Under the pieces are notes generated by a model that saw only the letters and a program-made list of their open reading frames with translations, was not told the DNA's origin and ran no database searches. Shown in pieces: positions 1 to 16,799 of a stretch of 50,775 nucleotides of DNA (the stretch's first letter is position 1; each line of letters starts with the position of its first letter). Position numbers and translations under genes: made by a program. The stretch comes from Aquificales bacterium (lineage in GTDB: Bacteria > Aquificota > Aquificia > Aquificales > QOAS01): NCBI GenBank assembly GCA_027035985.1, contig JALVTI010000030.1, forward strand, positions 1 through 50,775, given 5' to 3'.

Positions 1-1918
1 AATACAACCTTAGGTTTAATTCTTTTTCCGCAACCTCTTGGAGTTGCTTAAACCACTCCTCCCCAACAAAGTGTCTGAAGAGAAACCTACCCGTTTCCGA
101 GCCGGTTATCTCGTCCATTATAAAGACTATGTCCCCAATGCCGTTGGAGATAAAGCGCTTTTCCAAAATTCTCTTTAAATCTTTAGGAATTTCCCCACCG
201 AAGGTGGGGCTTTGGTATTTGTCCAAAAAGAAACTTTTTATATGGTCAAAGGTGCTTCCCCCGTCTTTGCGCTTCACAACTGCTTGGGTGGCGAAAGCGA
301 CCAGTATCTCTTTACCCTTCAGGGGTTTGTTTTCATCCTCCAAAAGGTGGGCTACCGTTTTTAACAACCTGTTTAGGACTCCCCTTTCTCCCAACCTCCG
401 TTCGGAACTGGTCGTATAGGTGACCTCCCTAACGGTGGAATACCTTTCTTCCTCCTCCGAATGGTTTCCCAATCTTTTGAGTTTTACCTTTCCGAGTTTG
501 GGAATATTCACCTCCTCGGGAAGGGAAAAGTTTTCCTCCTTTGAGAGGTAAAAGACCGTATCGGGATGCTCCGATTGGGTGTAGAAGGCAACCATGTTTC
601 TGTTTTTCTTGCACCACTTTTCTATAAGTTCGGTGTTTAAAAAAGTCCTCGGGGAGGTGTAGAGGATTAGGCTATTTTTCCCAAAGAGTTCAAAAATAGT
701 TGTTGTTTTCCCTATACCGGGAACACCCAAATTGGCAACCCAACGGGAGTTTTTCAAAACCTCTCGGAAAACCTTTTTGTGTTTCTTTCTCTTTTCCCTA
801 TTTAAGCGGTATTCCTTATCTATTCTCCAAACCTCTTTTAGGATTAGATGCTCATCGCTATTGGTCTTTAGGGGTTGAATTTCTACCTCTATCCCCTTTG
901 CGGGTGAGCTTAAGTTCATAAAAAACTTTTGGAGTTTTTCGGTGTATTCCTCCATAAAGCGGTTTCTGTTTTTATCGCCTCCACTTACGGAGGAATAGAT
1001 CTCCCTCGCTTTCCCCAAGAGGTTTAGAACTTCCCTTAGTTTCACCTTTGGGGAAAAACTTATCTGCGCAACCTTGTGGAGTGTTATACCGAATACCCTA
1101 AGCACTAAGGGAGTTTTTTCGTCGATTATCCCCTTTTGGAGGAGAAGTTTTAAATACTCCCCCGCGTAGGAGCTCGCCTGAACGAGTTTTGCAACTTCCC
1201 TATTCTTCCACTCCAAAAGTTGGAAAAATTCCCTTAACCTTTCGGGGTCTTCGGTTTTTAATTCCAACAACTTGTTTAGGAGCTCTTTAAAATTCCCTCC
1301 ACCCTTTAGGTTTATCGGTTTAAAAAGGTAACCTTGTCTAATTCCTTCACGGTCGGTGTTATAAATTTTGGTTAAACCGCTCTGGTATAGGTCGGGAGAG
1401 TTTAAACTGTCGTATCCCCCAAAAAGGTCGCTTGCGCCGTATAAACTCAAATCCGCAACCGTTATATAGTGCAATTTCCCCTTGATGGTAAAGTGCAAGA
1501 CTAAATCCGCGTGTAGGAGGGAACCCTTTTCATCTTTAACGAATTCCCCCGAAAGGTTTCCGAATTTTTCCCCAAACCTTTGAAGGAAGAAATTCCTATC
1601 GTCCTCAATAGGTATGGGTTTTCCGTAATAGAAAAACACCGCCGGATTGATATTTTTCAAATCCTCCAAAAGTTTCTTTCCAAATGTATACCCTTGGGTG
1701 AAGTAGGTAAATAAAACCCTCGAAAGGGATTGTTTGAAAAGCTCTGTAATCCTCGAACCGGAAAAGATGTTTAACGCATAACCTATAAGGGGATAATTTT
1801 CAAATTCCTTCAACCAATAGGGGTGGAAATTTAGATTTTCTTTTAAAGCCTTTAAAAGTCCGATATTGAAAAGGGACTCGTAGAGGTAGCCGAGTTTTCT
1901 CTCTTTATTAGAGAACAT
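1..1918 (-). CDS. P-loop NTPase, SF1-helicase-like, with about 390 aa of unassigned N-terminal region; partial, 3' end runs off the left edge
   Basis: Absent from the ORF track because there is no stop in the window. My translation of the minus strand from ATG 1918-1916 (MFSNKERKLGYLYESLF...) stays open to nt 1, and the frame is consistent at both ends. Walker A is LGVPGIGKTTT (nt ~698-727). Walker B-like IVFIMDEITGSE (nt ~95-130) lies about 215 residues later, a spacing typical of SF1/Upf1-like helicases with a 1B insertion. The + strand ORFs 129..419 and 700..921 and the - strand ORF 429..617 are shadow frames. Confidence 0.6.
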   Translation of the reverse strand, partial: MFSNKERKLGYLYESLFNIGLLKALKENLNFHPYWLKEFENYPLIGYALNIFSGSRITELFKQSLSRVLFTYFTQGYTFGKKLLEDLKNINPAVFFYYGKPIPIEDDRNFFLQRFGEKFGNLSGEFVKDEKGSLLHADLVLHFTIKGKLHYITVADLSLYGASDLFGGYDSLNSPDLYQSGLTKIYNTDREGIRQGYLFKPINLKGGGNFKELLNKLLELKTEDPERLREFFQLLEWKNREVAKLVQASSYAGEYLKLLLQKGIIDEKTPLVLRVFGITLHKVAQISFSPKVKLREVLNLLGKAREIYSSVSGGDKNRNRFMEEYTEKLQKFFMNLSSPAKGIEVEIQPLKTNSDEHLILKEVWRIDKEYRLNREKRKKHKKVFREVLKNSRWVANLGVPGIGKTTTIFELFGKNSLILYTSPRTFLNTELIEKWCKKNRNMVAFYTQSEHPDTVFYLSKEENFSLPEEVNIPKLGKVKLKRLGNHSEEEERYSTVREVTYTTSSERRLGERGVLNRLLKTVAHLLEDENKPLKGKEILVAFATQAVVKRKDGGSTFDHIKSFFLDKYQSPTFGGEIPKDLKRILEKRFISNGIGDIVFIMDEITGSETGRFLFRHFVGEEWFKQLQEVAEKELNLRLY

Positions 1919-1971
1919 GGATTAGTTATAGATATAGCAAAAGGAAGAAAAAATTTGAGAAACCCACAATG

Positions 1972-2271
1972 CTATTCGTTTCTATATAAGCTCGCTACAC
2001 AATGACCACAGATATTAATACCAGATAAAACTTGTAGGCTTTCAGCGACTGCCAAAGCTTCGTTTTTGGATAAATTTTCAAATGGCTTAAATATACTTCT
2101 ATTTACATAGATACCCATTTCTTGACAATTTGTTTCATTTATTGTTCCACATAATGCCCTTCCATTATTCAAAATATGAACCTCTCTTGTGTTTTCATAA
2201 AAACAAAGAGCGTATCCCATTGCCACATACCCCCCTAATGAAATTTGTTTTCCTAACGAACAATTTATCAA
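1972..2271 (-). CDS. small Cys-rich hypothetical protein, directly upstream of and co-oriented with the P-loop gene
   Basis: 99-codon ORF with six Cys, including ICGHC near the C-terminus. The ORF-track start is TTG. A better start is ATG at 2220 (MGYALCFYENT...), 9 nt after a GGGGGG Shine-Dalgarno-like run. A 53-nt gap to the next gene suggests an operon. I recognise no family. Confidence 0.35.
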   Translation of the reverse strand: MINCSLGKQISLGGYVAMGYALCFYENTREVHILNNGRALCGTINETNCQEMGIYVNRSIFKPFENLSKNEALAVAESLQVLSGINICGHCVASLYRNE

Positions 2272-2532
2272 GAAAGTTCCGTAATGTCAACACTATTTGT
2301 ATAACCTTCAAATTAACCTAATTAAGGAGTTAGGAAAGTGGTTTTTCAATGTTTCTCTACTAATTGTGGGAGCTTTAATCATTCAACCATTTATGAAAGA
2401 CTCTTTATCCAAAAAGTTAGTAGGTATAGGATTACTAAAATTTACTTAACGATTTTGTTTGTATGAACTTAGAAGGAAAGGAAAAATTTAGGGAACATCC
2501 TTGTTTCCTTTCTTCTTTATCGGAAAACATTT

Positions 2533-2889
2533 CTATAAGATGTTTCCAACTTTTACTTGAACATCAATAATATCATAATCAACTATGGGAACTAACTTCC
2601 TACCTTTTCTTTCAAGTTTCAGAAAACCCGCTTTTTCTAAAAGAATCACATCCTCGTAAATATTTTTGTAATCCCTGTTTACGATTTCCGCAAGCTGCTT
2701 AAGGGAAGAAGGTTTTTTATTTTTTATCACATCAAGTAACTTTTTCCTTTGGGGAGTTAGAATACGGTTTAATTCCTCTATAGACCCAACGGAAATATAT
2801 TCAATTTTTCCTTTTTGAGTAGCAACTGTTTCCTTTATTTCTTCCCAAAATTCGTTGAAATCTTCAACAATAACTTTTTTAACCTTCAT
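2533..2889 (-). CDS. TumA-like / HVO_A0114-family winged-HTH antitoxin
   Basis: 118 aa. The segment LTPQRKKLLDVIKNKKPSSLKQLAEIVNRDYKNIYEDVILLEKAGFLKLERKGRKLVPIV matches the MarR-like HTH pattern of antitoxins paired with DUF6516 toxins. It overlaps the upstream gene by 4 nt (ATGA), indicating coupling. Confidence 0.65.
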   Translation of the reverse strand: MKVKKVIVEDFNEFWEEIKETVATQKGKIEYISVGSIEELNRILTPQRKKLLDVIKNKKPSSLKQLAEIVNRDYKNIYEDVILLEKAGFLKLERKGRKLVPIVDYDIIDVQVKVGNIL

Positions 2890-3215
2890 ATTTCAACCTC
2901 CTTTAAAAGTTCTTTTAAATCTTTTTTGAAATCTTCCAATAGGTTATCTATGCTTTCAAATCTATAAATGTGTCTTTTTCCTTTTATATGCTTGTGGTGT
3001 CCCTCACATCTGTGGTTATCGTATCTCAAAAATTCTCCATCAAATTTTCCTGAACATTCGTCGTATAACGCAAAAACTAAAGAATATTTGTAACCTTCGG
3101 GGTAGCAATTATCTTTCCTTACTCTCCATATCTTTATTTCCAATATTCCCAGAAGTTTTCCTTTCTTGGAGAATATAGGTCTTTTAACGTGAAGTTCCAA
3201 TTCAGCATTAGGCAT
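2886..3215 (-). CDS. TumE-like (DUF6516) toxin component
   Basis: 109 aa. The His-rich core LRYDNHRCEGHHKHIKGKRHIY resembles the (Y)DN.PHH...HHKH signature of the DUF6516/TumE family. It is the first gene of a two-gene operon with the HTH protein. Confidence 0.6.
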   Translation of the reverse strand: MPNAELELHVKRPIFSKKGKLLGILEIKIWRVRKDNCYPEGYKYSLVFALYDECSGKFDGEFLRYDNHRCEGHHKHIKGKRHIYRFESIDNLLEDFKKDLKELLKEVEI

Positions 3216-3234
3216 TATGGTTTAATATACCATA
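3216..3234. promoter_or_regulatory. inverted repeat TATGGT-N7-ACCATA abutting the start codon of the TumE-like gene; possible autoregulatory operator or 5' hairpin
   Basis: Read directly: tatggt ttaatat accata, immediately 5' of ATG 3215 on the minus strand. TA operons are commonly autoregulated through palindromic operators. Confidence 0.3.
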
Positions 3235-3415
3235 AAAATTAATAAACATTTCCGCAGTGTTCTATTCGGATAACGAGAATAATTATCTGAATACCTCGTC
3301 CGCGGGTATAACTTCGGTTTTACCTTCTTTCAGTTTTTTCAAGCTCTCGGGCTAATGCTTCATCAAGGTTTATATTTAGTTTTAACCACTAAAGTGTGTA
3401 TTATTGTGTGTATTT

Positions 3416-3805
3416 TTATACTCCTACCTTTGTTTTAAACAATTCATTTAACAATTTACTTATTGTTAGTGCTATCTGTACCAATTCTTTTCTGGAGAAT
3501 TTAGGAGCTTCTAATAACTCTAGACCGGTATTTCCTACAGTGTTTCCTTTTCCTTTAACAAATCTTTTGATAAGTTCTAGGTTTTCTTCTATTTGTGGGG
3601 TAATTTCGTAACCATGTTCGGTTTTCTTAGGAATACCACCTTCCAAAGTGATAATTCCCTTCGGTTTAAGAATTGTTTCCCTGTAAGAGAGATGGATTTC
3701 TTCGGAGACTTCGCGGGAACCCAGTTTTAAATAAACCGTTCCATTATCTAGGGTTCCAACCTCTAAAGGTGCATCGGGATAAATTGCTTTAATACCTTCT
3801 GCCAA
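3416..3805 (-). CDS. hypothetical 129-aa protein downstream of an AbrB-type antitoxin; candidate unassigned toxin
   Basis: ORF with a TTG start. GGAGGA lies 13 nt upstream and AAGGAGG 20 nt upstream. I can see no PIN, MazF, RelE or Doc motifs. Its position after an AbrB/SpoVT-fold gene is typical of a toxin. Confidence 0.45.
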   Translation of the reverse strand: MAEGIKAIYPDAPLEVGTLDNGTVYLKLGSREVSEEIHLSYRETILKPKGIITLEGGIPKKTEHGYEITPQIEENLELIKRFVKGKGNTVGNTGLELLEAPKFSRKELVQIALTISKLLNELFKTKVGV

Positions 3806-3832
3806 TTCTTTAAAAAATTCCTCCGCCTCCTT

Positions 3833-4099
3833 TTAAGCTCCTCTTAATAAGTAATATTCCTCCCTGTTAAGGTCTTTCAGAGAGGTTTGAGGTAATTTTC
3901 CTATTTGCGGTTTTCTTCGGAGAATTACTTCTCCTTTGGATGGGTTTACTTCTGCAATAATTTCCCCACCATTTTTGTAGTCTATTCCCAAAGTTTCCAA
4001 AAACAACTTAGGTAGATTTATATTTCCCCGACTGTAAACTTTGAGTCGGGTTAAAGCAAATTCTTTTTCCTTTTTGGGTTTGGCTATTAACAACTTCAT
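3833..4099 (-). CDS. AbrB/SpoVT/MazE-type antitoxin-like DNA-binding protein
   Basis: Swapped-hairpin pattern RGNINLPKLFLETLGIDYKNGGEIIAEVNPSKGEVILRR. The ORF track extends to 4183, but ATG 4099 (MKLLIAKPKK...) is preceded by GAGGGG at suitable spacing, so I use 4099. Confidence 0.6.
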   Translation of the reverse strand: MKLLIAKPKKEKEFALTRLKVYSRGNINLPKLFLETLGIDYKNGGEIIAEVNPSKGEVILRRKPQIGKLPQTSLKDLNREEYYLLRGA

Positions 4100-4121
4100 T
4101 TTTATCCCCTCATTGGAATAA

Positions 4122-4478
4122 TACTCAGTAGTTTTCAGACTTTTTGACGAAAATGCGGAACATGATTTAAAGGAAGAAATCAAACAAATTTTGTTTAATG
4201 AGTGAATTTTTATTCCCTGTGAAGTAATAGTAGAACTGTCTTACCTTTTAAGGACGAGGTTAAAAAAGAGTAAACCCGAAGTGGTGGAAATTGTTTCCTG
4301 GCTATTTTTAAGGGAGAATGTGGAACTTGAACCCGAATGTCTATCCGCTTTAAGCCTTTGGAAAAACTCAACTTTGGATAAATTGGTAGATGCTCTAATA
4401 ATTGTAAAGTCCAAAAAAAGGAATTGCTTATTAGTTACCTTGGATGAGGAAATGTTTAAAGTTTATAGTGAAATGTAA
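4122..4478 (+). pseudogene. decayed PIN-domain (VapC-like) gene: no start codon and an in-frame TGA at 4203-4205
   Basis: The frame is open from 4122. It reads ...FRLFDENAEHDLKEEIKQILFNE*IFIPCEVIVELSYLL...LVDALIIVKSKKRNCLLVTLDEEMF. PIN-like acidic positions are present (FD, VxE, D-A-L-I, VTLD). There is no ATG/GTG/TTG upstream of the first acidic motif. The ORF track lists only the GTG-started tail, 4281..4478. Confidence 0.45.
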
Positions 4479-4488
4479 AAACCTAAAT

Positions 4489-5268
4489 TTAGTCCACCCC
4501 CAAACACCCCTTACACACCCTAATCTCTCTAAAGCGGAAACCTCCGTTTTCCTTCCTCTCGGGGTAGGTTATAACAGCCAATTCCTCTATAGGTTTTTCC
4601 ATTCCGCACTTCTCACAACGGAGGGTAGAAAATTTTTCCACCGCCAAGTGGTTGTTTAGAAACTTATCCATATAGGGATTCCAAATCGTTAAAAGTTCAA
4701 ACTCCGAGAGGATATCGATTAAATTGTGTTGCGCTATTAGGTTTAAGGGTTCCAAGTTTCCACTCCTTAGGTGTTCTTCCCAAAGGTTTTTAACCTCTCC
4801 GCTGTCTATGTCCCAATCGGAAAAACCGAAATAGTGGAAAAATCTCGGATGTATCAACTCACGGAGTTTGGGAGTTTTATGCCACCTCTTTAGGTCTCTT
4901 ATTTTGTAGGTTATACCCATTGCGGGTTTCATTATTTCTTTAACCCGCAATTGGATACCTAAATGGGTTCTAAGCCATTCACTCTCAAAGGGAGCGTTGT
5001 AGGCATAAAACTCCTTTTCACGTGCGAGTTTTTCTATAAACCCTTTAAATTTGGAATAAAAATCCTCCTTGCCAAGTTTTTTGGTTCTCAAAAGCACAAT
5101 TGCGGTTTTTCCGTAAACGAATCCTCCGCAAATGATTTCTCCCTTTTGCGGGTCGTAATCGGTGGTTTCGAAGTCTAAAACAACCCCTTCGAAGTTTACT
5201 TTTGGTTGCAACTCCAAAAGGATGTAATAGAGTCCATCTCCATTTAGTTTGCCGTTTACCAAAACCAT
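4489..5268 (-). CDS. RNase H-like-fold 3'-5' exonuclease (DEDD/YprB-like) with C-terminal Cys4 zinc ribbon
   Basis: 259 aa. Exo I is VVLDFETTD. Exo II-like is AYNAPFESEWL. Exo III-like is AQHNLIDIL. The C-terminus carries CEKCG...(27 aa)...CKGC. Confidence 0.65.
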   Translation of the reverse strand: MVLVNGKLNGDGLYYILLELQPKVNFEGVVLDFETTDYDPQKGEIICGGFVYGKTAIVLLRTKKLGKEDFYSKFKGFIEKLAREKEFYAYNAPFESEWLRTHLGIQLRVKEIMKPAMGITYKIRDLKRWHKTPKLRELIHPRFFHYFGFSDWDIDSGEVKNLWEEHLRSGNLEPLNLIAQHNLIDILSEFELLTIWNPYMDKFLNNHLAVEKFSTLRCEKCGMEKPIEELAVITYPERKENGGFRFREIRVCKGCLGVD

Positions 5269-8200
5269 TTGTTTTGCTAATTATTTTAATATGATTTACC
5301 AGCTTAGGGAGGAACCCCAAAGGTGTTTGACCCTAAAAGAGGAAGTTTTCAAAAAATTTATAGAACTGTTTAAAGAAAAATTGAAAAAGCAATCCTCTTT
5401 TAGGAACGGGGAAGATGTTTTCAATTTTTCCAAAGAGGTGGCGATAGAGTTCGAAAAGAGATTCCCGAAAATATCCGAAGTTTTTAACGGAAAACCCTGC
5501 GATTGTAAAAAATTCTTTGAAATTTTTACCGAAAAGCAGTTGGCGGAGATAAGAAAACTTTCAAAGGAAATCCAAATAAATGTAGAGTTAAAAAGCTTTA
5601 AAGAGTCTTTGGAGGATTATGTAAAACAGAATTTTGAACTTTTTAAAAAACGTCTAAAGGTAGAGGGATATACCGAAGATGAGATAAAAAAGGCATGGGA
5701 AGAAAATTTCAAATTTTTTGAGGGACTAATAAAGGAAGATACAACCTACTACACCCGAATAGCCTCTTTGAGGATAAAGGATAAAACGGAAAAACCCAAC
5801 GAGTCCGACCCTTACTTTTTGACTTACCTATTGGTGTTTGAATTGGAGAAAAGCTCCCGCTCGGAGGAATTTAAAAACCTAAAGGAATCCCTTTTCGGGG
5901 GAAAAATTGAGTCGGTTGAGGAAACTTTAAAAGAATTGGTCGCCCAAAAGTGGGAGAGTAATGTTGACGAATTGTTAGCAGACCTCGGTATAGTTGACGA
6001 AGATTTTGACAACAAATGGGAGGAAAAGAGGGAGGATATTCTTAAAATCGTTGAGGACCTATTCGATGCAATAGATTCCACCGTAAGGAGCAGAATAGAG
6101 GCCGAACACTTTAGGGATTTAATAGAGTTTGCCAAAGAGAGGATTGAAGACAGAAATTTATCTGAACCTTTAAAAGTAATTGAAGAAAACCTAAACCTTT
6201 TAAGGGAAATTTACGAAAACAATGCCGATTTGGGGAACATAATCGTAGAGGCTATCCCCGTAGGGTTTGAATTTTGGGACAAAATAACCGATTACGCGGT
6301 TGAGAAAGACTTTAGGCACTTCCTATACACCTACAAAATGAAAATTAACGACATTGCGGAAGGTGCAATAGATAACCATTTGTTAAAACCCAAATGGGTT
6401 AAATTGCCCGACATAAAAAACCGTGCGGATTACTTTATCGCCCAAGGGATACTTTTTAAGGAAATAGTTAGGAATTTAGACACTATAGAAAATGAAAAAG
6501 AAAAATTGGGAACCGATGCGGTTAAAAAACTTCCCTCTTACCTAAAGGGTTTTATAAAGGCACTCTTCTATTACGGGAAGGCGGATATAGAAACCATTGA
6601 GAGGTTTTATAACTACTACGAACAGGTTCAAGTTATAGTCTCCAATTGGTTGGCAAGAAGGAGTGACGAGAGAACCTTTAGCGAAACGGATAGGGAATTT
6701 TTAACCCGAATAGGGGATGAAATTGAAAGATTACTCCCACCGTTGGAGGGAAACAAAGAACGATTTGAGGAGCTTTACGGATATATAGCTCAAAACCTAA
6801 TAAAGGAATTTGTTGAAAAGGTTCTACCCTCCAACGGTAGGGAGCTTTTCGTCGCGGTGGATTTCCATTCCTTGGCGGAGGCTACAAAAAGATTCCTTTC
6901 TGATGGAGAAAGACCTTCCAAAACCCGCATTTATAGGGGTCTTTTGAAAGTCCTAACCCAAAAGGAGGAACTGGAAAACTTCGAATACATCTTTAGGGTG
7001 AAAAATGCCGTTCAAAACCACTTATTGGATTTGGATAGAGAGGTTTCCCCTAAATTGGAGAAATTGAAACCTATAAAAGACCTGAAAGGGTTTTTCACCT
7101 TAACGGCGGAACTATCTGACGAGCGGCTACCTAGTGAGAAACAATCTTTTAAATTGGGATTTATTTTAAGTTTCCTTTTGCTAACCTCACTAATAGCCTC
7201 GCGAAGCGGGGGAATTTTAGAGGGTTTTTCACTACCCCACTCCTTCAGTGATAGGGAAGACGAGATAATAAACAGATATAGAGATTTACTCTATGCACTT
7301 GTAGGGGCTTCGGTTTTTGCGATAAATTCCGACAAAGTAGCGGCGGTTCAAAACTTTAATTGGAGTAATGTATTTAAAAAAGAACCTTTTAGAAAAGATA
7401 AAAATAAAAACCTCTACAAGGCTATAAATAACCTTTTAAATACCCGTTTGTTGGTGAACAGTAAAATTAAAAACGGCTTAACCTCCCTCTATTCCAATCT
7501 ACCCTTTGAGGTTGAAGGTTTAAACCTAAGCCAAAAAGTGGCAATCTTGGCACTTTCCCACCCTACGAAGGTGGATAAAAACTTAAAAGCCGTTTTGGGG
7601 GAAGCTTACATTTTTGAACCCATCAAGGGAAAGGATTTGTTTAAAACCTCCAAAGGTGTAAGAGTTTTTAGGAAAACCTTTAGTGGTGTTTACAGCTTTA
7701 TAGAAAAAGACCAAAAAGGGGAATTCGCGGATTGCAAGACCGTTTTGAGTGATTTCCTAAAAACTTTAAAGAAACTCGGGGTGGAAAAGGTCTATTTAAT
7801 TCCACCCTTACCCATATATAGGGGTTTATCAACAAAGGAGGACTTTTTAAGGGAGCTCTATTTCTCCGACCTACTTGCGGAGGTTGGGGAGGAAATTGAA
7901 ATACCTCTAAGGTTGGTTTTCTCGAGCTTCGGAATAGTTTATACCCCCGAGCTAAGCAACTTCAAAAGGAGAATAAAGGAATTTCTGAAAAAGGAAGGTT
8001 TAATTATTAAAACGGACAAGAAAGGAGAAGAAAAGAGGGGAATAATAGCGGTAAACCTGTTTAAAAACATTGAGAAAATAACCCCGCGGAGCGGGGCTAT
8101 GCCATTTATTACCCCGAAATTTGCGATAATTCCGCTCTTTTCTATGGAGGAGGGCAAGGAGGGAAGCGTTGAAAAGACGCTATTCCACCACGCGTTTATA

Positions 8201-8533
8201 TACTCCGTTCCCAACCACCGACTCTTTGAGGGAGTCCATCCCGAAAAGTTGTTCCTCCGAGAGGAAGAAAAGAACGAATTGGCAAACCTTTTGAGTGTGG
8301 TTCATTTAATCCAATACCAAAAAGGGGAGGATATTAAAAAGACCAAAAAGGGAAATATATGGGAAAAGACCTTTAAGAGGAACCCCTTTTATGTCCTTCC
8401 CGAAAGGAGGAGTGGGGATAAGAATATTCTTGCACTTACGGAGGTGGAAATTTTCTTTAACTCCGATGTCCGTCCGAGGTTGCAAACGGTTCTAACCGCC
8501 TTTAGGTTGTGGGATGCGGTTAGAAACCCTTAG
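5249..8533 (+). CDS. very large (about 1080-1094 aa) hypothetical protein with no recognisable family
   Basis: Uninterrupted 3.3-kb ORF with protein-like composition throughout. The ORF-track start is TTG 5249, which overlaps the divergent exonuclease gene. ATG 5291 (MIYQLREEPQ...) is the first ATG. I found no Walker A, DEAD/DExH, HD, GGDD or HNH motif by eye. Confidence 0.7.
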   Translation: MPFTKTICFANYFNMIYQLREEPQRCLTLKEEVFKKFIELFKEKLKKQSSFRNGEDVFNFSKEVAIEFEKRFPKISEVFNGKPCDCKKFFEIFTEKQLAEIRKLSKEIQINVELKSFKESLEDYVKQNFELFKKRLKVEGYTEDEIKKAWEENFKFFEGLIKEDTTYYTRIASLRIKDKTEKPNESDPYFLTYLLVFELEKSSRSEEFKNLKESLFGGKIESVEETLKELVAQKWESNVDELLADLGIVDEDFDNKWEEKREDILKIVEDLFDAIDSTVRSRIEAEHFRDLIEFAKERIEDRNLSEPLKVIEENLNLLREIYENNADLGNIIVEAIPVGFEFWDKITDYAVEKDFRHFLYTYKMKINDIAEGAIDNHLLKPKWVKLPDIKNRADYFIAQGILFKEIVRNLDTIENEKEKLGTDAVKKLPSYLKGFIKALFYYGKADIETIERFYNYYEQVQVIVSNWLARRSDERTFSETDREFLTRIGDEIERLLPPLEGNKERFEELYGYIAQNLIKEFVEKVLPSNGRELFVAVDFHSLAEATKRFLSDGERPSKTRIYRGLLKVLTQKEELENFEYIFRVKNAVQNHLLDLDREVSPKLEKLKPIKDLKGFFTLTAELSDERLPSEKQSFKLGFILSFLLLTSLIASRSGGILEGFSLPHSFSDREDEIINRYRDLLYALVGASVFAINSDKVAAVQNFNWSNVFKKEPFRKDKNKNLYKAINNLLNTRLLVNSKIKNGLTSLYSNLPFEVEGLNLSQKVAILALSHPTKVDKNLKAVLGEAYIFEPIKGKDLFKTSKGVRVFRKTFSGVYSFIEKDQKGEFADCKTVLSDFLKTLKKLGVEKVYLIPPLPIYRGLSTKEDFLRELYFSDLLAEVGEEIEIPLRLVFSSFGIVYTPELSNFKRRIKEFLKKEGLIIKTDKKGEEKRGIIAVNLFKNIEKITPRSGAMPFITPKFAIIPLFSMEEGKEGSVEKTLFHHAFIYSVPNHRLFEGVHPEKLFLREEEKNELANLLSVVHLIQYQKGEDIKKTKKGNIWEKTFKRNPFYVLPERRSGDKNILALTEVEIFFNSDVRPRLQTVLTAFRLWDAVRNP

Positions 8534-8562
8534 AGGGTTCTTCCTTTAATCTTTTCCCCTTT

Positions 8563-9117
8563 ATGGGGAAGGTTTTGGTTATTTACGACTCCGAAACGGG
8601 GAACACCGAAAAAATGGCTCACCTCGTGGCGGAGGGTGCAAGGAAGTTCCCCGTGGAGGTTAGGGTTAAACATGTGAAGGATGCCACTAAAGAGGACATC
8701 CTTTGGGCGGACGGTCTGGCTGTGGGAAGTCCGACCTATTTGGGCGGTATGTCTTGGAGGCTTAAAAAGTTCTTCGACGAGATTAGCGACGAGCTTTGGG
8801 GTGAAATAGACGGGAAAATCGCCTGCGCCTTCTCCTCCTCCGGCGGGTGGGGAGGCGGCAACGAGATAGCCTGCCAAAACATACTGATGATGCTGATAAA
8901 TTACGGCTTTCTGGTTTTCGGGGTAACCGACTATGTGGGAAAGAAATTCACCCTCCACTACGGGGCTGTCGTTGCGGGAGAGCCGAGAACGGAGGAGGAA
9001 AAAAATGCCTGCGTAAGGTTGGGTGAAAGATTAGCCCAATGGGTGTTGATTTGCAAAGACTGCAAAAGGGAGTATTTGGAGAATTTGAAACCTCCCGAGA
9101 AGGACGAAGAGGATTAA
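8563..9117 (+). CDS. flavodoxin-fold NAD(P)H:quinone oxidoreductase (WrbA-like)
   Basis: N-terminal KVLVIYDSETGNTEKMA FMN-binding loop, then GSPTYLGGMS and SSSGGWGGGNE, all typical of the WrbA/flavodoxin-like family. Confidence 0.75.
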   Translation: MGKVLVIYDSETGNTEKMAHLVAEGARKFPVEVRVKHVKDATKEDILWADGLAVGSPTYLGGMSWRLKKFFDEISDELWGEIDGKIACAFSSSGGWGGGNEIACQNILMMLINYGFLVFGVTDYVGKKFTLHYGAVVAGEPRTEEEKNACVRLGERLAQWVLICKDCKREYLENLKPPEKDEED

Positions 9118-9125
9118 AAACCTTC

Positions 9126-9150
9126 CCCGCCGCTTCGCGGCGGGCTTTTT
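9126..9150 (+). terminator. rho-independent terminator after the flavodoxin-like gene; possibly bidirectional with leuA
   Basis: The stem CCCGCCG (9126-9132) pairs with CGGCGGG (9138-9144), with loop CTTCG, followed by CTTTTT. On the minus strand a T-run follows 6 nt after the stem. Confidence 0.6.
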
Positions 9151-9154
9151 AACT

Positions 9155-10723
9155 TTAAACAGTTCCCTCTCTGCTTATATTCTGTTTGGAGCGCAGATAC
9201 TCCTTTCTGGCGAGCAGGCGGTTTAGGGCGTCCACATACGCCTTTACGCTGGCTTTCACTATGTCTATATCGCTAGCGCGACCGCTCGCCTTTATCCCGT
9301 CCAGCTCTATCACGACGCGCGCCTCGGCTTGGGCGTCGGTGTTGGGAGTTAGCGCCTTTATCGAGTAGTCGACAAATTTCGGTTTAATACCGGTAGCCTT
9401 CTGTATAGCCTTTATGGCGGCATCGACGGGACCGTTTCCGGTTTCGGTCGCGGTTTTCTCCTCGCCTTTGAAGACCAACTTAACCGTGGCGGTGGGAAGT
9501 ATGTTGTTTCCGGTTTGCACCTGCAAATGTTCCAGTTTGAGATAATCCTCCCCTCCGGAGGTTCTAAATTGCTCGTAAATGAGCGCCTCGAGGTCTTCTT
9601 CGTAAACCTCCTTCTTCTGGTCGGCGAGGGCTTTGAATTTTTCGAAAAGTTTGTTTAGGGTTTCCTCGTCCACCTCGTAACCGAGCTCTTTGAGTTTCGC
9701 CTTCAGTGCGTGTCTGCCGGAGTGCTTTCCGAGGACTATCTTCGATTTGGGGAAACCAACATCTTCCGGCTTCATAATCTCGTAGGTCTCACGCTTCGCC
9801 AATACGCCGTGCTGGTGGATTCCCGACTCGTGGGCGAAGGCGTTATCCCCGACAATAGCCTTGTTGGGTTGAACGAAGGTTCCGGTAATCCTACACAGGA
9901 GTCTCGAAGTCTTATACAGCTCGGGGGTATTTACCTCGGTATAGAGTCCCTTAAAGTGGTCTTTTCTCACCTTTAGAGCCATAACGACCTCTTCGAGGGC
10001 GGCGTTTCCGGCACGTTCACCTATTCCGTTTATGGTGCACTCCACCTGGCGGGCACCCGCCAAGACCGCCATCAAAGAGTTTGCGGTTGCCAAACCCAGG
10101 TCGTCGTGGCAGTGCACCGAAATAATCGCCTTATCTATATTGGGAACATTCTCCTTTATATCCCTTATAAGGTTGTAAAACTCGTCGGGGATGGCGTAGC
10201 CGACCGTGTCGGGGATGTTTATAACCGTTGCACCCGCCTTAATAACCTCTTCGATAATCTTGTAGAGGAATTCCCTCTCGCTTCGGGTAGCGTCCTCGCA
10301 AGAGAATTCGACATCGTCGGTGAAGTTTCTCGCGTAGCTTACCGCCTTTTTAGCCCTCTCGAGCACCTCCTCGGGGCTCATCTTCAGTTTGTATTTCATG
10401 TGGATGGGAGAGGTGGCTATAAAGGTGTGTATGCGCTTTCTCTCCGCCGGTTTTAGCGCCTCCGCCGCCGCCTCTATGTCCTTTTCCAAAGCCCTTGCGA
10501 GGGAGCATATAACGGGACCTTTAACCTCTTTCGCTATTAGGTTTATAGCCTCCCAGTCGCCTTTGGATGCGGCGGCAAACCCCGCCTCTATAATATCCAC
10601 ATTCAGGCGGGCGAGCTGTTGCGCCATCTGTAGTTTCTCCTGTGTGGTCATAGAGAACCCAGGCGCTTGCTCGCCGTCGCGCAGTGTGGTATCGAAAATA
10701 TAGACTTTTTCACCCATGGTCAT
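9155..10723 (-). CDS. leuA: 2-isopropylmalate synthase
   Basis: Contains [17 protein letters not shown] and [13 protein letters not shown], plus a C-terminal LeuA regulatory domain. The start is probably ATG 10717 (MGEKV...), 7 nt after GAGAGAGG. Confidence 0.9.
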
Positions 10724-10784
10724 ACCTCTCTCAACTTTAAACGTAAAAGTATAAGTTGCACCTTTGTATGAACTCCGTTAGCTC

Positions 10785-10801
10785 TTGCAAAAAATTTGCA
10801 A
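10785..10801. promoter_or_regulatory. inverted repeat TTGCAAA-AAA-TTTGCAA in the leuA/trpE divergent intergenic region
   Basis: Read directly. It has 7-bp arms and lies about 50 bp upstream of the trpE start. Function unknown; possibly an operator or a -35 element. Confidence 0.25.
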
Positions 10802-10852
10802 TTTCGGTGTGGAAAGAAATACCGACCTCCAAAGGGTTAAGATTTTTGGCTT

Positions 10853-12352
10853 ATGTTAAACCTCTCGGCGGAGGAGTTTTTCGAACTCTCGAAGGATTAC
10901 AACGTAATTCCCCTCTACACGGAATTTATAGCCGATATGGAAAACCCCCTAACGGCGTTTTTGAAGATAAAAGACCTCGGGAGGTTTCCCTTTCTGCTCG
11001 AGAGCGTGGAGGGTGGCGAGAAGTGGGCGCGCTACTCCTTTTTGGGGTATGGCGGGAGCTTTTACGTAAAGACCTACCGCCACTATTACGAGATATACGA
11101 CCGCGGGCGGCACGAAATTGGTGAATTCGCCGACCCGCTCGACATACTCAAACCTATAGTTAAAAATTACAAACCCTATCGGGATAAAAATCTCCCCCGC
11201 TTTTGGGGTGGGTTGGTAGGTTATATCGGCTACGATGTGGTGAAGTTCTGGGAGCCGGTTCCCGACAGAAATCCCGACCCGATAGGGGCGCCCGATATTT
11301 TCCTCGTTCAGACCGACCTAATGGTGATTTTCGACAACCTAAGTTCGAAACTGATAGTCCTAAAACCGGTGGTGGTTGGGAATAGAAATCCTTTAGACCT
11401 CTACAGGGAGGCTCAAAAGGAAATCCTCCGGGTGGTGGAGAGGTTGAAAAAACCCCTACCCGAAAGGGAGTTTTTACCCGTTCCACCTAAAACCCTTGAT
11501 GCGGACTTTTCCGAGTGGAGGAGCAACTTCACCAAAGAGGGGTTTGAAAGTATAGTCAAACGGGCGAAGGAGTATATAGAGGCAGGGGACATCATTCAGG
11601 TGGTCTTGTCCCAACGTTTCCGAAAGAGGTTAAATACCTCTCCCGAACTCCTCTACAGGGCTTTGAGGTATTTAAATCCATCCCCCTACATGTTCTTTTT
11701 GAAGTTTGACGACCTCTACGTGGTGGGTGCATCTCCCGAAATCCTCGTAAGGGTGGAGGATGGGAGGATAGAAACCCGACCTATAGCGGGAACGAGACCG
11801 AGGGGAAAAACCCCCCAAGAGGATAAAGAGTTGGAGGAAAACCTCCTATCGGACGAAAAGGAGAAAGCGGAACACATAATGCTGGTAGACCTGGCGCGCA
11901 ACGATGTGGGGAGGGTGGCAAAGTATGGGTCTGTCAAAGTGGAAAACCTCATGAGGATAGAGCGCTACTCCCACGTTATGCATATTGTCTCCGACGTGGT
12001 TGGGGAGCTTCGGGAGGACAGAGACGCGCTCGACGTTATAAAGGCAACCTTCCCCGCCGGCACCGTTAGCGGAGCGCCGAAGGTTAGGGCTATGCAGATA
12101 ATAGAGGAGCTCGAAAACGAGCGGAGGGGGATATACGCCGGAGCGGTGGGCTATATCTCCTTTCAGGGAAATACCGACACCGCCATAGCTATTAGAACAG
12201 CCGTTATCAGGGGGGACGAAATATTTGTCCAAGCGGGGGCGGGAATTGTGGCGGACTCCATTCCCGAAAGGGAGTGGGAGGAGACCCGCAACAAGGCTAA
12301 AGCCCTCATTAAGGCGGTCGAGATTGCCGAAAGATTTTGGAAAAACGGATAG
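10853..12352 (+). CDS. trpE: anthranilate synthase component I
   Basis: Chorismate-binding enzyme motifs: LSQRF, IAGTRPRG, LLSDEKEKAEHIMLVDLARND, GTVSGAPKVRAMQIIEELE and GIYAGAVGY. Confidence 0.9.
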   Translation: MLNLSAEEFFELSKDYNVIPLYTEFIADMENPLTAFLKIKDLGRFPFLLESVEGGEKWARYSFLGYGGSFYVKTYRHYYEIYDRGRHEIGEFADPLDILKPIVKNYKPYRDKNLPRFWGGLVGYIGYDVVKFWEPVPDRNPDPIGAPDIFLVQTDLMVIFDNLSSKLIVLKPVVVGNRNPLDLYREAQKEILRVVERLKKPLPEREFLPVPPKTLDADFSEWRSNFTKEGFESIVKRAKEYIEAGDIIQVVLSQRFRKRLNTSPELLYRALRYLNPSPYMFFLKFDDLYVVGASPEILVRVEDGRIETRPIAGTRPRGKTPQEDKELEENLLSDEKEKAEHIMLVDLARNDVGRVAKYGSVKVENLMRIERYSHVMHIVSDVVGELREDRDALDVIKATFPAGTVSGAPKVRAMQIIEELENERRGIYAGAVGYISFQGNTDTAIAIRTAVIRGDEIFVQAGAGIVADSIPEREWEETRNKAKALIKAVEIAERFWKNG

Positions 12353-12367
12353 CCCTTCGGGGGAAAA
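12353..12367. repeat. CCCTTCGGGGGAAAA hairpin motif, copy 1 (after trpE)
   Basis: Exact 15-mer shared with 24439..24453 and 30064..30078. All three copies are intergenic and preceded by AGC(C). Confidence 0.4.
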
Positions 12368-12583
12368 CTTCCCTTTTCGGTTTTCTTCCTTTAAACCAAA
12401 ACGGGGTAGGGATTAGATAGAAGACCTACATTCGGATGGTTTTTCCAATATTCCAAGCCACGGAAGGGGAGCGAGAAAAGGATTCTCCTTTCCCATTTAT
12501 GGAATAAATAGGTGGCGAAAACCCTTTCGGAGAAAATTCAATACCCACGACCGCCACGGGGATATAAAAAGGGCTATACCACT

Positions 12584-12772
12584 TTAAGGGTCTCTTAAAA
12601 ATTCGGTAACCTCCTCGGGGGTGAGGTCGTACCAGTTGCGGTAGGCGTCGGCAACCGCGTAGAGGTATACATCCCTTAGGTTTAGGCAGTAAACCTCGTC
12701 GACCGATTTGGCGATTTCCTCCGCCGCATCCTTGGAGCAGGTGGGAACGGCAACTATTATTTTCTTGGGATT
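12584..12772 (-). pseudogene. same-frame continuation encoding the missing C-terminal 62 residues of the phosphoribosyltransferase
   Basis: I translated the same frame past the TGA: NPKKIIVAVPTCSKDAAEEIAKSVDEVYCLNLRDVYLYAVADAYRNWYDLTPEEVTEFLRDP, then TAA at 12586-12584. This is the expected C-terminal half of this PRT family. The listed ORF 12426..12776 is in the wrong frame. Confidence 0.6.
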
Positions 12773-13261
12773 TCATTTCTTGAGATATTCAATGGCGGCG
12801 CGGAGGGTATAGCCGGAAGCCAATCCGTCGTCGACCACAATAACAGTTTTTCCGCTTATATCGGGAAAGGGTTTATTTCCCCTAAAGAGGGTGTTCCTCT
12901 CCAAAAGGGTTTGCCGGGTCTTTTGAATTTGGCGCTCTATATCCTCTTCCGTCAAACCCGCCGAGCGGATTAGTTCCTCGTTTAAAACAACATCCCCGTC
13001 AAGGTTCATCGCGCCGAAGCCGGCTTCGGTATTCCAGGGAAGTTGAATCTTTCTGACGATTAGAAGCTCAAGGGATGCACCGAGTGCTTTTGCTATCTCC
13101 TTGGCTACCGGAACGCCTCCCGATGGTATAGCCAACACCAAGAGGTCTTTATCCTTTAAATACCTCTTTAGGAGCTCGCCCAACTTCTTACCCGCATCGG
13201 TGCGGTCTTCAAAAACGAAGAACTTGTTTAGGAGCTCGGGAAGAAAGATAAGTCTCCCCAT
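12773..13261 (-). CDS. phosphoribosyltransferase-family protein, N-terminal 162 codons ending at an in-frame TGA
   Basis: PRPP-binding loop KTVIVVDDGLASGYT. The ORF stops at TGA 12775-12773, in the middle of the expected domain. Confidence 0.7.
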   Translation of the reverse strand: MGRLIFLPELLNKFFVFEDRTDAGKKLGELLKRYLKDKDLLVLAIPSGGVPVAKEIAKALGASLELLIVRKIQLPWNTEAGFGAMNLDGDVVLNEELIRSAGLTEEDIERQIQKTRQTLLERNTLFRGNKPFPDISGKTVIVVDDGLASGYTLRAAIEYLKK

Positions 13262-13293
13262 AAGGGGGAAATTAGAAAGGAAAGGCGGAAAAA

Positions 13294-14667
13294 TTAGGCT
13301 TCCTTTCTCCTGGCGTTGAGATACATGAGCAGTAAGGAAATCAGGATTGCAACACCGGCGAGAACAACGTAAACGATGAAACCTTTGGCGTAACCGGCTT
13401 TTCCGTAAATATCGACAAACTTACCGAGTATGGGGGGAACCACGAAACCGCCGAAAGCTCCCAAACCGCCAACCCATCCCGCGGCGCCACCGGTTGCGTG
13501 GGGGACGTATTTGGGAACGAGCTTGAATACCGCACCGTTAGCCATTCCCATACCAATACCCATAAGGACTTCTCCCGTTAGGGCTATGGCAAAGGAGGAG
13601 GAGAACATCAGTATCAGGGCGCCTATTAGGGTTATGGAGTAGCTGACCAAAGCCATCAGCTCGCCGCCAAACTTGTCGCTGAGAAAACCGCCGAGAATTC
13701 TGATGACCGAAGCCAGTAAGGAAAAGCCGAAAGCCATTAGCAGACCCGCTTCGGTAACGGGGAGGTTGTAGCTGCTAACCCAGAAGACTATAAACCAACC
13801 GGTTAGTGCCAAAAATCCACCGAAGGAAACGAAGTAAAGATATACCAACGCCCAGGTAAATTTCTCTTTAGCAGAGATGATTAGCGATTGCACCAGGCTA
13901 CCGGTGGGAAAGAGCTCTTGTCCTAAAGCCCTGGCTATCTTTTTAGCCGTTTCGGGGTCGAAGCCCTTCTCTATTAGCTGGAAGTAGTAGGCATCCCTCG
14001 CGAAGAGGAAATAGATAATCGTTCCTATCAGTAGGAATAGGAACCATATGAAGTAGGACATGGGGAGTCCCAACGCCTTTAGCGCAAAGGGCAGAACCAT
14101 ACCGAACAGACCGGGTGCCAGGTTACCGACACCGGCGTAAACGCCAAGAGCCGTTCCCTGGTCCTTTTGGGAGAACCAATAGGAGGTTTGGGCTATTCCG
14201 ACGGAAAAGGTAGCTATACCGCAACCGCTTAGGAAACCGAAGAGTAGGATTAACCAGTACATCCACGGTTCGAGGTTGGGATAAAACGCGAACAGCATTG
14301 CCGAAAGTCCCGCCATTCCTATAACCGAAAGCCAAAGGAGCGTCAGCATCGGCTTTCTACCGCCCACCTTGTCGACCCAGGCGGCAAAGGGTATTCGGAG
14401 CAGCGAACCGGTGAGGTTCGGCGCGGCGACCAGCAGTCCCAATAGAAATCCGGACAACCCTAGGATATGTTTGAGATTTTTGGCGACCGGTCCATAGAGC
14501 GAAACCGCCGCAAAACCGATGAAGAAGCCCCAGGTTGCCATTACCAGACCCGTCAAGGGGTCTCCCTTTAACCCCAACTTTTTGAGGATGGTGTCCTTTT
14601 CAATTTCTCCCTTTTTAAGGGCTTGAAGAAGCTTTTCGAGTTCCTCTCGATTTACAGAGGACATCAC
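13294..14667 (-). CDS. narK: MFS nitrate/nitrite transporter (NarK/NNP family)
   Basis: About 12 predicted TM segments. Gly-rich NNP-like motifs GVYAGVGNLAPGLFG and GGAAGWVGGLGAFGGF. Located next to narGHJI. About 40 aa of hydrophilic N-terminal extension. Confidence 0.8.
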   Translation of the reverse strand: MMSSVNREELEKLLQALKKGEIEKDTILKKLGLKGDPLTGLVMATWGFFIGFAAVSLYGPVAKNLKHILGLSGFLLGLLVAAPNLTGSLLRIPFAAWVDKVGGRKPMLTLLWLSVIGMAGLSAMLFAFYPNLEPWMYWLILLFGFLSGCGIATFSVGIAQTSYWFSQKDQGTALGVYAGVGNLAPGLFGMVLPFALKALGLPMSYFIWFLFLLIGTIIYFLFARDAYYFQLIEKGFDPETAKKIARALGQELFPTGSLVQSLIISAKEKFTWALVYLYFVSFGGFLALTGWFIVFWVSSYNLPVTEAGLLMAFGFSLLASVIRILGGFLSDKFGGELMALVSYSITLIGALILMFSSSFAIALTGEVLMGIGMGMANGAVFKLVPKYVPHATGGAAGWVGGLGAFGGFVVPPILGKFVDIYGKAGYAKGFIVYVVLAGVAILISLLLMYLNARRKEA

Positions 14668-14784
14668 TCCACCTCCCTAATTTTGTGAAGGTAAATATAA
14701 ACTTTAACCCCAAATGATGCTTATAAGCAAAGATAAAATCTACTTGTCCAAAGTGTATTAAAAGGTTGACAATAGTGAATTGTT

Positions 14785-16011
14785 ATGAGACAGTTGGTTT
14801 CCTTGTTAGGAATTAGTATTCCTCTGGTCTCTTCAGCGGCTGGACTTTTTCAAAATCTCAAATTGCACGGGAATGTATTTTTAGATTTCCGTCCCCGTTG
14901 GGAGTATGTGGATATAGAAAACGACGGATTGAAAACGGCAAACGCGATAACCTCTCGGATTCAATTTGGACAAAATCTGCAATTCTCAAAACAATTTAGT
15001 ACCTACTTTGAACTGACAGCGGTAGTTCCAATTTATGCGCATTACTCACCTTTAAAAGAGGGCTACGAATTTGTAGCCGATGAGGCAGACTTTAGGGCGA
15101 CCCAATACTACATAGACTATGCGTGGAACTGGATAAACCTGAAATTGGGTAGACAGGTTATAAATCTCGACAACCAGAGGTTTATAGGTTCGGTCAACTG
15201 GCGCCAAATGCCCCAAACCTTTGACGCCGCGAGGGTAGACTTTTCCCCCTATAGAGGTATAAGGGCAACCGTAGCCTATATAGTTTCCCGTCAGGGGGTT
15301 TTGAAATCTCTATCCACCCAACCGTTCGATTACAAACCTTTCAACCACTCGTGGTTGGTTCACCTATCCTTCGAACCCCTAAAGGGTGTTAAGACTTCCC
15401 TTTACTCCTACAACTGGAAGATGAACTCCGACACCTATGGGGTGAACATTTCCGGAAATCTCCCCTACGGGGGACTGAAGTTCGGATATTGGGGAGAGTA
15501 TGCCCATCAGATAGTTCACAACAGCAATTCCGGTATTTGGGATACGGCAAACTATTATCACCTAAAGCTGTCCCTAAATACCGATTGGGGCAACCTAAAA
15601 CCCTTCGGGGCTATAGGTTTCGAACACTTGGGAAAACACTTCATTACACCCCTGGCTACCCTCCACAAGTTCAACGGTTGGGCTGATGTATTCCTGAAAT
15701 ACACCGCCAATACGGACACCTACGGGTTAAACGACGCATACGTATACGCCGGCATCTCCCATCAGAGGTTTGGAAAATTTGAGGCGGCTTTCCACCGCTT
15801 TACCGCACCCGAAGATTTCCCCCAAGGTGGGAATAAATTCGGAAATGAAGTAGACCTCCTGTGGAGTAAAAAGGTCTTTAAAAACACCTCCCTGTTGGTC
15901 AAATACGCCAAATACAACGCCGATAGCGAGGCATCCCAAGCCGGTGTTGGCGACAAGGATACGACCAAATTCTGGGTAATGTTGAACTTTAAATTCGGAG
16001 CTTCCTTTTAA
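14785..16011 (+). CDS. outer-membrane beta-barrel porin (alginate-export-like family)
   Basis: N-terminal signal peptide (LVSLLGISIPLVSSAAG). Alternating Y/W/G-rich amphipathic strands. FRPRWEYVD near the N-terminus. C-terminal ...KFGASF with a terminal Phe, typical of OMPs. Confidence 0.6.
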   Translation: MRQLVSLLGISIPLVSSAAGLFQNLKLHGNVFLDFRPRWEYVDIENDGLKTANAITSRIQFGQNLQFSKQFSTYFELTAVVPIYAHYSPLKEGYEFVADEADFRATQYYIDYAWNWINLKLGRQVINLDNQRFIGSVNWRQMPQTFDAARVDFSPYRGIRATVAYIVSRQGVLKSLSTQPFDYKPFNHSWLVHLSFEPLKGVKTSLYSYNWKMNSDTYGVNISGNLPYGGLKFGYWGEYAHQIVHNSNSGIWDTANYYHLKLSLNTDWGNLKPFGAIGFEHLGKHFITPLATLHKFNGWADVFLKYTANTDTYGLNDAYVYAGISHQRFGKFEAAFHRFTAPEDFPQGGNKFGNEVDLLWSKKVFKNTSLLVKYAKYNADSEASQAGVGDKDTTKFWVMLNFKFGASF

Positions 16012-16786: not shown

Positions 16787-16799
16787 TTTTAACACCTCC

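Follow-up and report, generated by a model that had tools for sequence, protein, structure and literature searches.

Which process does a small exonuclease serve when its gene stands head-to-head with that of a very large orphan protein? The question is raised by the left end of a 50,775-nucleotide stretch of DNA from an Aquificales bacterium (contig JALVTI010000030.1 of assembly GCA_027035985.1, positions 1..50,775, forward strand; hereafter the window). The initial annotation of this DNA described a DEDD-type exonuclease of 259 amino acids (aa), divergent from a giant open reading frame (ORF), as a stand-alone protein of the kind found in conflict systems. We found that the exonuclease gene instead opens an operon that also encodes a superfamily 2 (SF2) helicase of ~1156 aa. 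Together with the divergent orphan of 1080 aa, these genes form a three-gene module seen so far only in heat-loving Aquificota, for which we tentatively favour a role in surveillance or defence. Helicase–nuclease machines underlie DNA repair and much of prokaryotic immunity, and the hosts of this one are bacteria related to hyperthermophiles, whose defence repertoire is barely explored. Here, a helicase family without a name in any database is coupled with a proofreading-type exonuclease, and a 1080-aa protein without relatives beyond its own family is also involved. The module occupies the following positions in the window.

1..1918, minus strand: SF2 helicase, N-terminal 639 aa, continuing beyond the left window edge (stop-free frame with Walker A GVPGIGKTT, motif Ia YTSPRT and motif II DEITG)
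4489..5268, minus strand: exonuclease gene, 259 aa, DEDDh domain and C-terminal Cys4 zinc ribbon (ORF with ATG start; PF13482)
5269..5290, no strand: AT-rich stretch of 22 bp that separates the two divergent start codons, TTGTTTTGCTAATTATTTTAAT, a candidate shared or bidirectional promoter core
5291..8533, plus strand: giant orphan protein, 1080 aa, without a family match

A zinc-ribbon exonuclease of the YprB/MrfB type

The exonuclease ORF was exactly as first described, and a profile search agreed with the family suggested there: PF13482 (RNase_H_2) matched residues 30–196 over model positions 2–164 of 165 (E = 3.7e-9; bit score 37.2, gathering threshold 22). Among 5.8 billion protein clusters we found just 14 clusters of relatives, at 54–90% identity, and all 14 matched PF13482; the family alignment used here comprised 15 sequences. 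Each of the motif residues named in the initial annotation was invariant in all 15, namely D32 and E34 of Exo I (VLDFETT), N91, F94 and E95 of Exo II (YNAPFE), H181 and D185 of Exo III (HNLID, H-x3-D), and C218, C221, C252 and C255 of the ribbon. In a hidden Markov model alignment, E95 was aligned to the Exo II Asp ('FD') of the solved diDNase; Glu at this position is therefore a conservative metal-ligand substitution and not a loss.

The AlphaFold2 model of the exonuclease, computed from the 15-sequence alignment, had a predicted local distance difference test score (pLDDT) of 83.9, with values above 90 across most of the DEDDh domain. Strands 230–238 and 244–252 formed a beta-hairpin between the two CxxC knuckles of the model (pLDDT about 70–82), as expected of a zinc ribbon. 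The significant Foldseek matches in PDB and BFVD were DEDD exonucleases, or polymerases and helicases bearing such a domain. They included the proofreading domains of PolA, PolB and PolC, NrnC, REXO2/Orn, Cas2-DEDDh and the DinG exonuclease domain in PDB (E from about 1e-4) and phage DNA polymerases in BFVD (E down to 5e-6), all with modest TM-scores of 0.3–0.47. The PHROG collection gave phrog_17 'DNA polymerase' (E = 1.1e-6). The fold and active-site layout are thus shared with NrnC, RNase D and the proofreading domains of family A, B and C polymerases; unlike the latter, the window protein has no polymerase domain, carries His and not Tyr in Exo III, and has an added zinc ribbon. Together, these data firmly support the assignment of the 259-aa protein as a DEDDh exonuclease of PF13482/COG3359 (YprB/MrfB-type) with a zinc ribbon, predicted to be catalytically intact. 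Its functional elements, all on the minus strand, are as follows.

4654..5193, minus strand: DEDDh 3'-5' exonuclease domain, aa 26–205 (invariant residues, AlphaFold2, Foldseek, PHROG)
5173–5175, minus strand: codon of catalytic D32
5167–5169, minus strand: codon of catalytic E34
4984–4986, minus strand: codon of catalytic E95
4726–4728, minus strand: codon of catalytic H181
4714–4716, minus strand: codon of catalytic D185
4498..4623, minus strand: Cys4 zinc ribbon, aa 216–257, C218-x2-C221 ... C252-x2-C255 around the beta-hairpin (invariant Cys, AlphaFold2)

The family assignment brings in a first alternative to defence. MrfB has a DEDDy-like fold with an H-x3-D motif at His258/Asp262, and it prefers DNA (PMC11194089). 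MrfB (YprB) and its helicase MrfA (YprA), which function in mitomycin repair in Bacillus subtilis, could be the model for the module in the window: the exonuclease and its operonic helicase would excise a class of lesion in a thermophile, and the giant protein would be a lesion-recognition or scaffold accessory. The exonuclease belongs to the same Pfam family and has the same DEDDh chemistry, and its model shares with MrfB both the DEDDy-like fold and the H-x3-D His on a long helix. In agreement, five of its homologues are labelled 'YprB with RNaseH-like and TPR domain' (COG3359) in IMG. However, no TPR Pfam match was found in the window protein, which ends in a 42-aa Cys4 ribbon where MrfB has its C-terminal TPR; the Exo II Asp is replaced by an invariant Glu; and MrfB was absent from the PDB sequence matches of the exonuclease at E <= 10. 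The exonuclease is a member of PF13482/COG3359 and not a strict MrfB, as it has neither a TPR nor an MrfA-type partner.

The exonuclease heads an operon with a large helicase

The left 1.9 kb of the window holds no complete ORF because the helicase frame, on the minus strand, exits the window edge. The visible part is 62% identical to residues 5–630 of a 1156-aa protein encoded directly downstream of the exonuclease at another locus, L002 (homologous loci, tabulated by tblastn, carry L numbers). The full-length helicase has motif V TSSASRGLTFP and motif VI QxLFRGR, matches Pfam Helicase_C (E = 5.4e-5) and carries an N-terminal domain of ~380 aa. An operon of this ~1156-aa SF2 helicase with the exonuclease as its first gene is firmly supported.

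In MrfAB, too, the genes for the nuclease and for a large SF2 helicase are linked, and MrfB likewise acts with the adjacent helicase, which favours an MrfAB-like repair function. The helicase itself argues against it. It matched neither DEAD nor DUF1998/MZB in Pfam and showed no DinG features, and conserved cysteines were absent from sets of 9 or 22 aligned helicases, so that neither the Cys cluster of MrfA/YprA nor the Fe-S cysteines of DinG are present. Its N-terminal domain is unrelated to YprA, and MrfAB has no equivalent of the 1080-aa third partner. MrfA/YprA, DinG and Cas3 were rejected as identities for the helicase, none being supported in domain and profile searches.

Among solved structures, the best matches of the helicase core were weak (E 3e-3 to 2e-2) and fell on the RecA2 domains of the RNA helicases HrpA, Vasa, DDX41 and DDX3X, and motif Ia YTSPRT resembles the TQPRR of DEAH/RHA helicases. 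This suggests a second alternative, RNA processing or surveillance, in which a DEAH/RHA-like helicase would unwind structured RNA or RNA–DNA hybrids for a 3'-5' exoribonuclease. Many of the DEDDh fold matches are indeed RNases (REXO2/Orn, NrnC, RNase T). In contrast, by both fold and profile the nuclease best matches the proofreading domains of DNA polymerases, the characterised COG3359 member MrfB prefers DNA, and the RNA-helicase matches lie near noise level. We consider RNA processing improbable.

A separate observation concerns the helicase N-terminus (residues 1–340; window 899–1918, minus strand), where E12, D137, D154-x-S156, K242 and Q245-x3-Y249 were invariant across sequences of three phyla. 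These positions recall PD-(D/E)xK or RecB-type nucleases; a PDB profile search of the domain found nothing. A marginal PDB match of the N-terminus to 'HomA' (E = 0.014) was discarded, as it vanished when the N-terminal domain was searched alone.

The divergent giant protein and its candidate promoter region

The giant had been given a length of 1094 aa, from a TTG at 5249 that overlaps the exonuclease gene. We rejected this start: the homologues all begin at the equivalent of ATG 5291, with the N-terminus MxYxLxxExxRCLT, and in L010 and L001 in-frame stops lie 9–12 nt upstream of the equivalent ATG. The protein therefore has 1080 aa, and the start codons of the exonuclease (ATG 5268) and the giant (ATG 5291) are separated by 22 bp (5269–5290). 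Of the two geometries first considered, the 22-bp separation is retained and the overlap is discarded.

The spacer, TTGTTTTGCTAATTATTTTAAT, was identical at 21 of 22 positions in L003 and at 19 of 22 in L002, where the flanking proteins are only 52–66% identical. In L010 it is 27 bp long, with a perfect TATAAT 5 nt before the ATG of the giant. A sigma-70 consensus scan found no consensus promoter site in the spacer, and neither gene in the window has a Shine-Dalgarno sequence. From the sequence, we infer that the spacer may be a single AT-rich, roughly symmetric -10 region driving both divergent transcripts, whose leaders would be very short or absent. A shared regulatory unit of exonuclease and giant, as proposed initially, is plausible on this basis, and the spacer would make a compact system in which to study transcription that is bidirectional and possibly leaderless.

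The identity of the giant is the most interesting part of the triad. Its N-terminal half is variable and helical, with a high content of K and E. Towards the C-terminus (about 510–1080), the other half is alpha/beta and holds the invariant motifs VAVDF, QNFNW, KNGLTSLxSNLP, PPLPxYxGLSTKE, FHHAFIYS and KRNPxxVxPxxRSGDxNI. There was no match in Pfam, NCBIfam, PADLOC or PHROG, and a PDB profile search returned only noise. The 5.8 billion clusters contained seven homologues; a HMMER profile search of 1.84 billion representatives returned 12 proteins, none of them from outside this family (members, or fragments of members). The AlphaFold2 model, built from seven sequences, is unreliable (pLDDT 49) and had no Foldseek match at E <= 1e-3. 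Its top PDB fold matches, all sub-significant, were RNase-H-like folds (NurA, RNase HI, RuvC and the PIWI domain of short Argonautes), which hint at an RNase-H-like fold for the giant.

These features bear on a third alternative, that the triad is a remnant of a mobile-element replication system in which the giant would be a polymerase or primase that has escaped recognition, with the exonuclease as a proofreader on a separate chain and the helicase as the replicative one. The exonuclease fold is closest to phage and cellular polymerase proofreading domains, the GC content of the triad is atypical, and the giant motif NGLTSLYSNLP superficially resembles PolB motif A. However, that motif lacks the catalytic Asp, and no polymerase fold was among the weak structure matches of the giant. 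Neither the giant nor the helicase matched a PHROG, no relative occurred among the 2.9 million viral contigs of IMG/VR, and neither an integrase nor att-like repeats were found near the triad. We regard this explanation as very improbable. A viral origin was likewise rejected, as IMG/VR held no relative; none of its contigs carried the exonuclease.

The triad is rare, linked and under purifying selection

The head-to-head pair is conserved in other genomes. Giant and exonuclease were divergent neighbours at nine of the ten loci where the upstream side was visible (the window, L002, L003, L010, L015, L017, L001, L004 and L016), with L009 as the exception. The helicase lay downstream of the exonuclease at eight of 11 loci with a visible downstream side (the window, L002, L003, L010, L015, L017, L018 and L019). 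The exonuclease and helicase genes share 14 bp in L010; the gap between them is 5 bp in L002, 22 bp in L017 and L019, and about 50–70 bp in L015; the junction bears inserts in the window, L003 and L018. In the metagenome-assembled genome (MAG) JAADES01, giant and exonuclease share one contig (L004) and the helicase is on another (L008), so that all three genes are retained. The exonuclease was found in just two of 185,579 species genomes.

We also noted a 79-aa hydrophobic ORF between the promoter region and giant start on one side and the exonuclease gene on the other in L001 (9644–9883), L016 (9644–9883) and L004.

All named sources of the triad were Aquificota/Aquificales MAGs or metagenomes, with the exception of one MAG labelled Gammaproteobacteria. 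The latter, 'Gammaproteobacteria bacterium' in NCBI, contains a giant and a helicase (P0016 and P0024; DSZ31_02025 and DSZ31_03455) whose closest relatives and flanks are Aquificota-like, including a Prismane gene as in L002. The label is probably a binning or labelling error.

Selection on the triad was assessed from the ratio of nonsynonymous to synonymous substitution rates (dN/dS). Comparing the window with L003, dN/dS was 0.14 for the exonuclease, 0.14 for the helicase and 0.13 for the giant, against 0.06 for the neighbouring flavodoxin gene and 0.025 for leuA; dS was similar for triad and neighbours (0.16–0.30). The ranges were 0.14–0.20 for the exonuclease and 0.13–0.15 for the giant, and the triad values of 0.13–0.20 are 2–5 times higher than those of the neighbouring housekeeping genes. 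Therefore, the genes are real and constrained, yet less so than core genes, and they diverged along with their flanks. The GC content of the triad was 38–45% compared with 50–54% in the flanks (window, L002 and L003).

Distant helicase relatives and a possible wider family

Full-length homologues of the helicase, sharing its N-terminal domain, were found at 23–25% identity (E 1e-17 to 1e-28) in Cyanobacteria, Ktedonobacteria (Chloroflexota) and others. In all four independent contexts examined, a gene for a protein of ~900–1045 aa without a Pfam match lies immediately upstream of the helicase gene and overlaps it. The regions that contain these pairs of large protein and ~1120–1270-aa helicase are as follows.

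L005, 4440–20282
L006, 6843–21287
L012, 4960–11681
L013, 5324–11357

The pair in L005 directly precedes the Druantia type IV genes DruF, DruL and DruE, with restriction-modification genes close by, and that in L006 is near a DruE-like gene. Mobile-element genes are abundant in L013 and L014 but not in L012. The pairs match nothing in PADLOC-DB 2.0, the source of the defence profiles used throughout. The partner is of similar size to the giant; however, it is co-directional with the helicase and not divergent from it, and the exonuclease is absent from these loci.

Residues 612–1062 of the giant were colinear with residues 611–1021 of the upstream large proteins (hhalign, E = 2.9e-4, 384 columns), and both have the motif K[IV][KR]NGL[TS]SLYS.LP. 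The alignment scored 46, compared with a maximum of 26 in 20 column shuffles and 20 in a reversed control; weighing against it, the hhalign probability was 40% and an unrelated real alignment, that of the helicase family, scored 35. These comparisons are suggestive of homology between the giant and the cyanobacterial-type upstream large proteins.

A known arrangement of comparable composition is the pPIWI-RE triad (Burroughs, Iyer and Aravind 2013, PMC3702460), in which a restriction endonuclease with a zinc ribbon is followed by a DinG helicase and then by the pPIWI-RE protein itself, roughly 1000 aa long. The module in the window likewise combines a small zinc-ribbon nuclease and a ~1000-aa protein with a large SF2 helicase whose N-terminal extension is helical, and it too is patchily distributed; the weak structural hints for the giant, from a model of pLDDT 49, include PIWI and NurA RNase-H-like folds. 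In contrast, nine members of the giant family gave no pPIWI_RE Pfam domain up to E = 10, the nuclease is DEDDh and not of the restriction-endonuclease fold, the helicase lacks the DinG Fe-S cysteines, and gene order and divergent orientation differ. All sequence-level tests of membership failed.

A broader scenario would join these observations. Giant and helicase could be the core of an undescribed two-gene system for nucleic-acid surveillance, sparsely distributed over Aquificota, Cyanobacteria and Chloroflexota and in places adjoining Druantia, to which Aquificota recruited a polymerase-like, zinc-ribbon DEDDh effector. The C-terminal half of the giant would then hide a very divergent RNase-H/PIWI/NurA-like domain, making the system a functional analogue of pPIWI-RE systems. 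We offer this as speculation and think it quite unlikely.

A proposed helicase-fed exonuclease and its possible role

Our favoured reading is that the helicase feeds the exonuclease, that a large partner acts as sensor or scaffold, and that the module serves in surveillance or defence against foreign nucleic acid; we hold it tentatively, at somewhat less than an even chance. In this model, the ATP-driven helicase would unwind or translocate on nucleic acid and so present the DEDDh exonuclease, a two-metal enzyme, with free 3' ends. The Cys4 ribbon, in the place of the MrfB TPR, might act as a nucleic-acid clamp or partner docking element. The giant, co-inherited and presumably co-regulated, would be the sensor or scaffold that chooses where the machine acts. 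The likelier substrate is DNA, given the resemblance of the nuclease to a polymerase proofreading domain. We lean towards defence because of the extreme patchiness of the module, its atypical GC content, the relaxed constraint, the toxin–antitoxin cargo (see below) and the defence-island context of the distant relatives.

The initial proposal of a conflict-system effector has only circumstantial support, and several observations weigh against it. No triad gene matched PADLOC defence models beyond the exonuclease, whose sole match was 23 residues around Exo I to 'DEDDh, CRISPR-associated' (E = 2.4e-4); the giant and the helicase showed nothing below E = 0.008. This covers Druantia, Hachiman, DISARM, Dpd and the other PADLOC systems, none of whose component profiles matched the triad. 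No integrase, transposase, mobile-element or other defence gene flanked the Aquificota triads. The L002 triad lies between flavodoxin and hybrid-cluster (Prismane) protein genes; the flavodoxin gene adjoins the giant in the window and L003 as well, and the Prismane gene adjoins the helicase also in L011. This recurring position, together with dS like that of the flanks, looks like vertical inheritance. Operons for defence normally remain intact, and the triad is dispersed in some genomes: the JAADES01 helicase (L008) stands alone among ribosomal and tRNA-synthetase genes, the exonuclease in L009 is solitary and adjoins pepA and uvrD, and no helicase was nearby in L001 and L016. As the helicase motifs resemble those of DEAH/DEAD RNA helicases, the substrate could also be RNA. 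Finally, the structure model of the giant is unreliable, and interaction among the three proteins is something we infer.

An MrfAB-like repair function would fit a stable chromosomal location, dS similar to the flanks and genes scattered among housekeeping genes, one of them next to uvrD. A repair pathway would, however, be expected in more than two species genomes of the phylum. Low GC content, toxin–antitoxin cargo and relaxed constraint better suit an accessory gene set, and the distant helicase relatives adjoin Druantia and restriction-modification genes. We see repair as a credible and serious rival to defence, though an unlikely one.

The match to a CRISPR-associated DEDDh profile was considered separately. 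The exonuclease is neither fused nor adjacent to cas1/cas2 or a CRISPR array, as it would be in the Cas2-DEDDh type. A CRISPR array or repeats had been a candidate for the ORF-poor left region; none was found in 1..9000, and the region is the helicase gene leaving the window. Pfam and PADLOC gave no cas-type match in the neighbour genes, and no CRISPR RNA family was detected in the window.

If defence is the role, the module is a new combination of effector and sensor and a pointer to the wider family of large protein and helicase beside Druantia. If repair is the role, it shows that a YprB-type nuclease was paired with a helicase a second time, independently. Either way, both the exonuclease and the helicase, as thermostable proteins, would lend themselves to biochemistry.

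Chromosomal surroundings and variable cargo

Across the window, GC content was 33–42% in 1–8533 (triad and insert) and about 50% in 8563–50775. The remainder of the window is ordinary chromosome, with flavodoxin, leuA and trpE genes and the following features of the flank.

17332–22612: NarG/NarH-type nitrate reductase
32140–34434: NAD-dependent DNA ligase
36795–38537: PolX-PHP protein
38557–38633: tRNA-Lys(CTT)
45709–48051: PNPase

In the window, 2.5 kb separate the exonuclease from the helicase. This is cargo outside the core module, most of it a variable insert identified with Pfam and absent from the compact triads L002 and L010.

2533..4478, no strand: variable insert
2533–2889, minus strand: HVO_A0114-type helix-turn-helix protein, TumE partner (Pfam)
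2886–3215, minus strand: TumE toxin (Pfam)
3416–3805, minus strand: unannotated ORF, 129 aa
3833–4183, minus strand: ORF of 116 aa, AbrB/SpoVT-like in appearance, without a significant family match
4281–4478, plus strand: C-terminal remnant of a PIN domain, 65 aa (E = 0.005)
1975–2220, minus strand: small ORF rich in Cys, about 82 aa, adjoining the helicase gene on its upstream side, motifs ALCG ... ICGxCVxSLY

The 116-aa ORF and the PIN fragment are probably a decayed VapBC-type module. The same junction holds other cargo elsewhere: a ribbon-helix-helix protein with ParE in L018 (714–1195) and a 273-aa ORF without assigned function in L003. Positions 3224–3414 of the window keep fragments of the L018 ribbon-helix-helix/ParE cassette, and thus the junction is a hotspot of toxin–antitoxin turnover.

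The small Cys-rich ORF had no Pfam or other family match and occurs only in the window, L003 (12322–12594) and L018 (1706–1954). It evolves fast, with 56–60% amino acid identity compared with 89% DNA identity across the adjacent helicase gene (window and L003). It is possibly an accessory gene of the sub-lineage formed by the window, L003 and L018.

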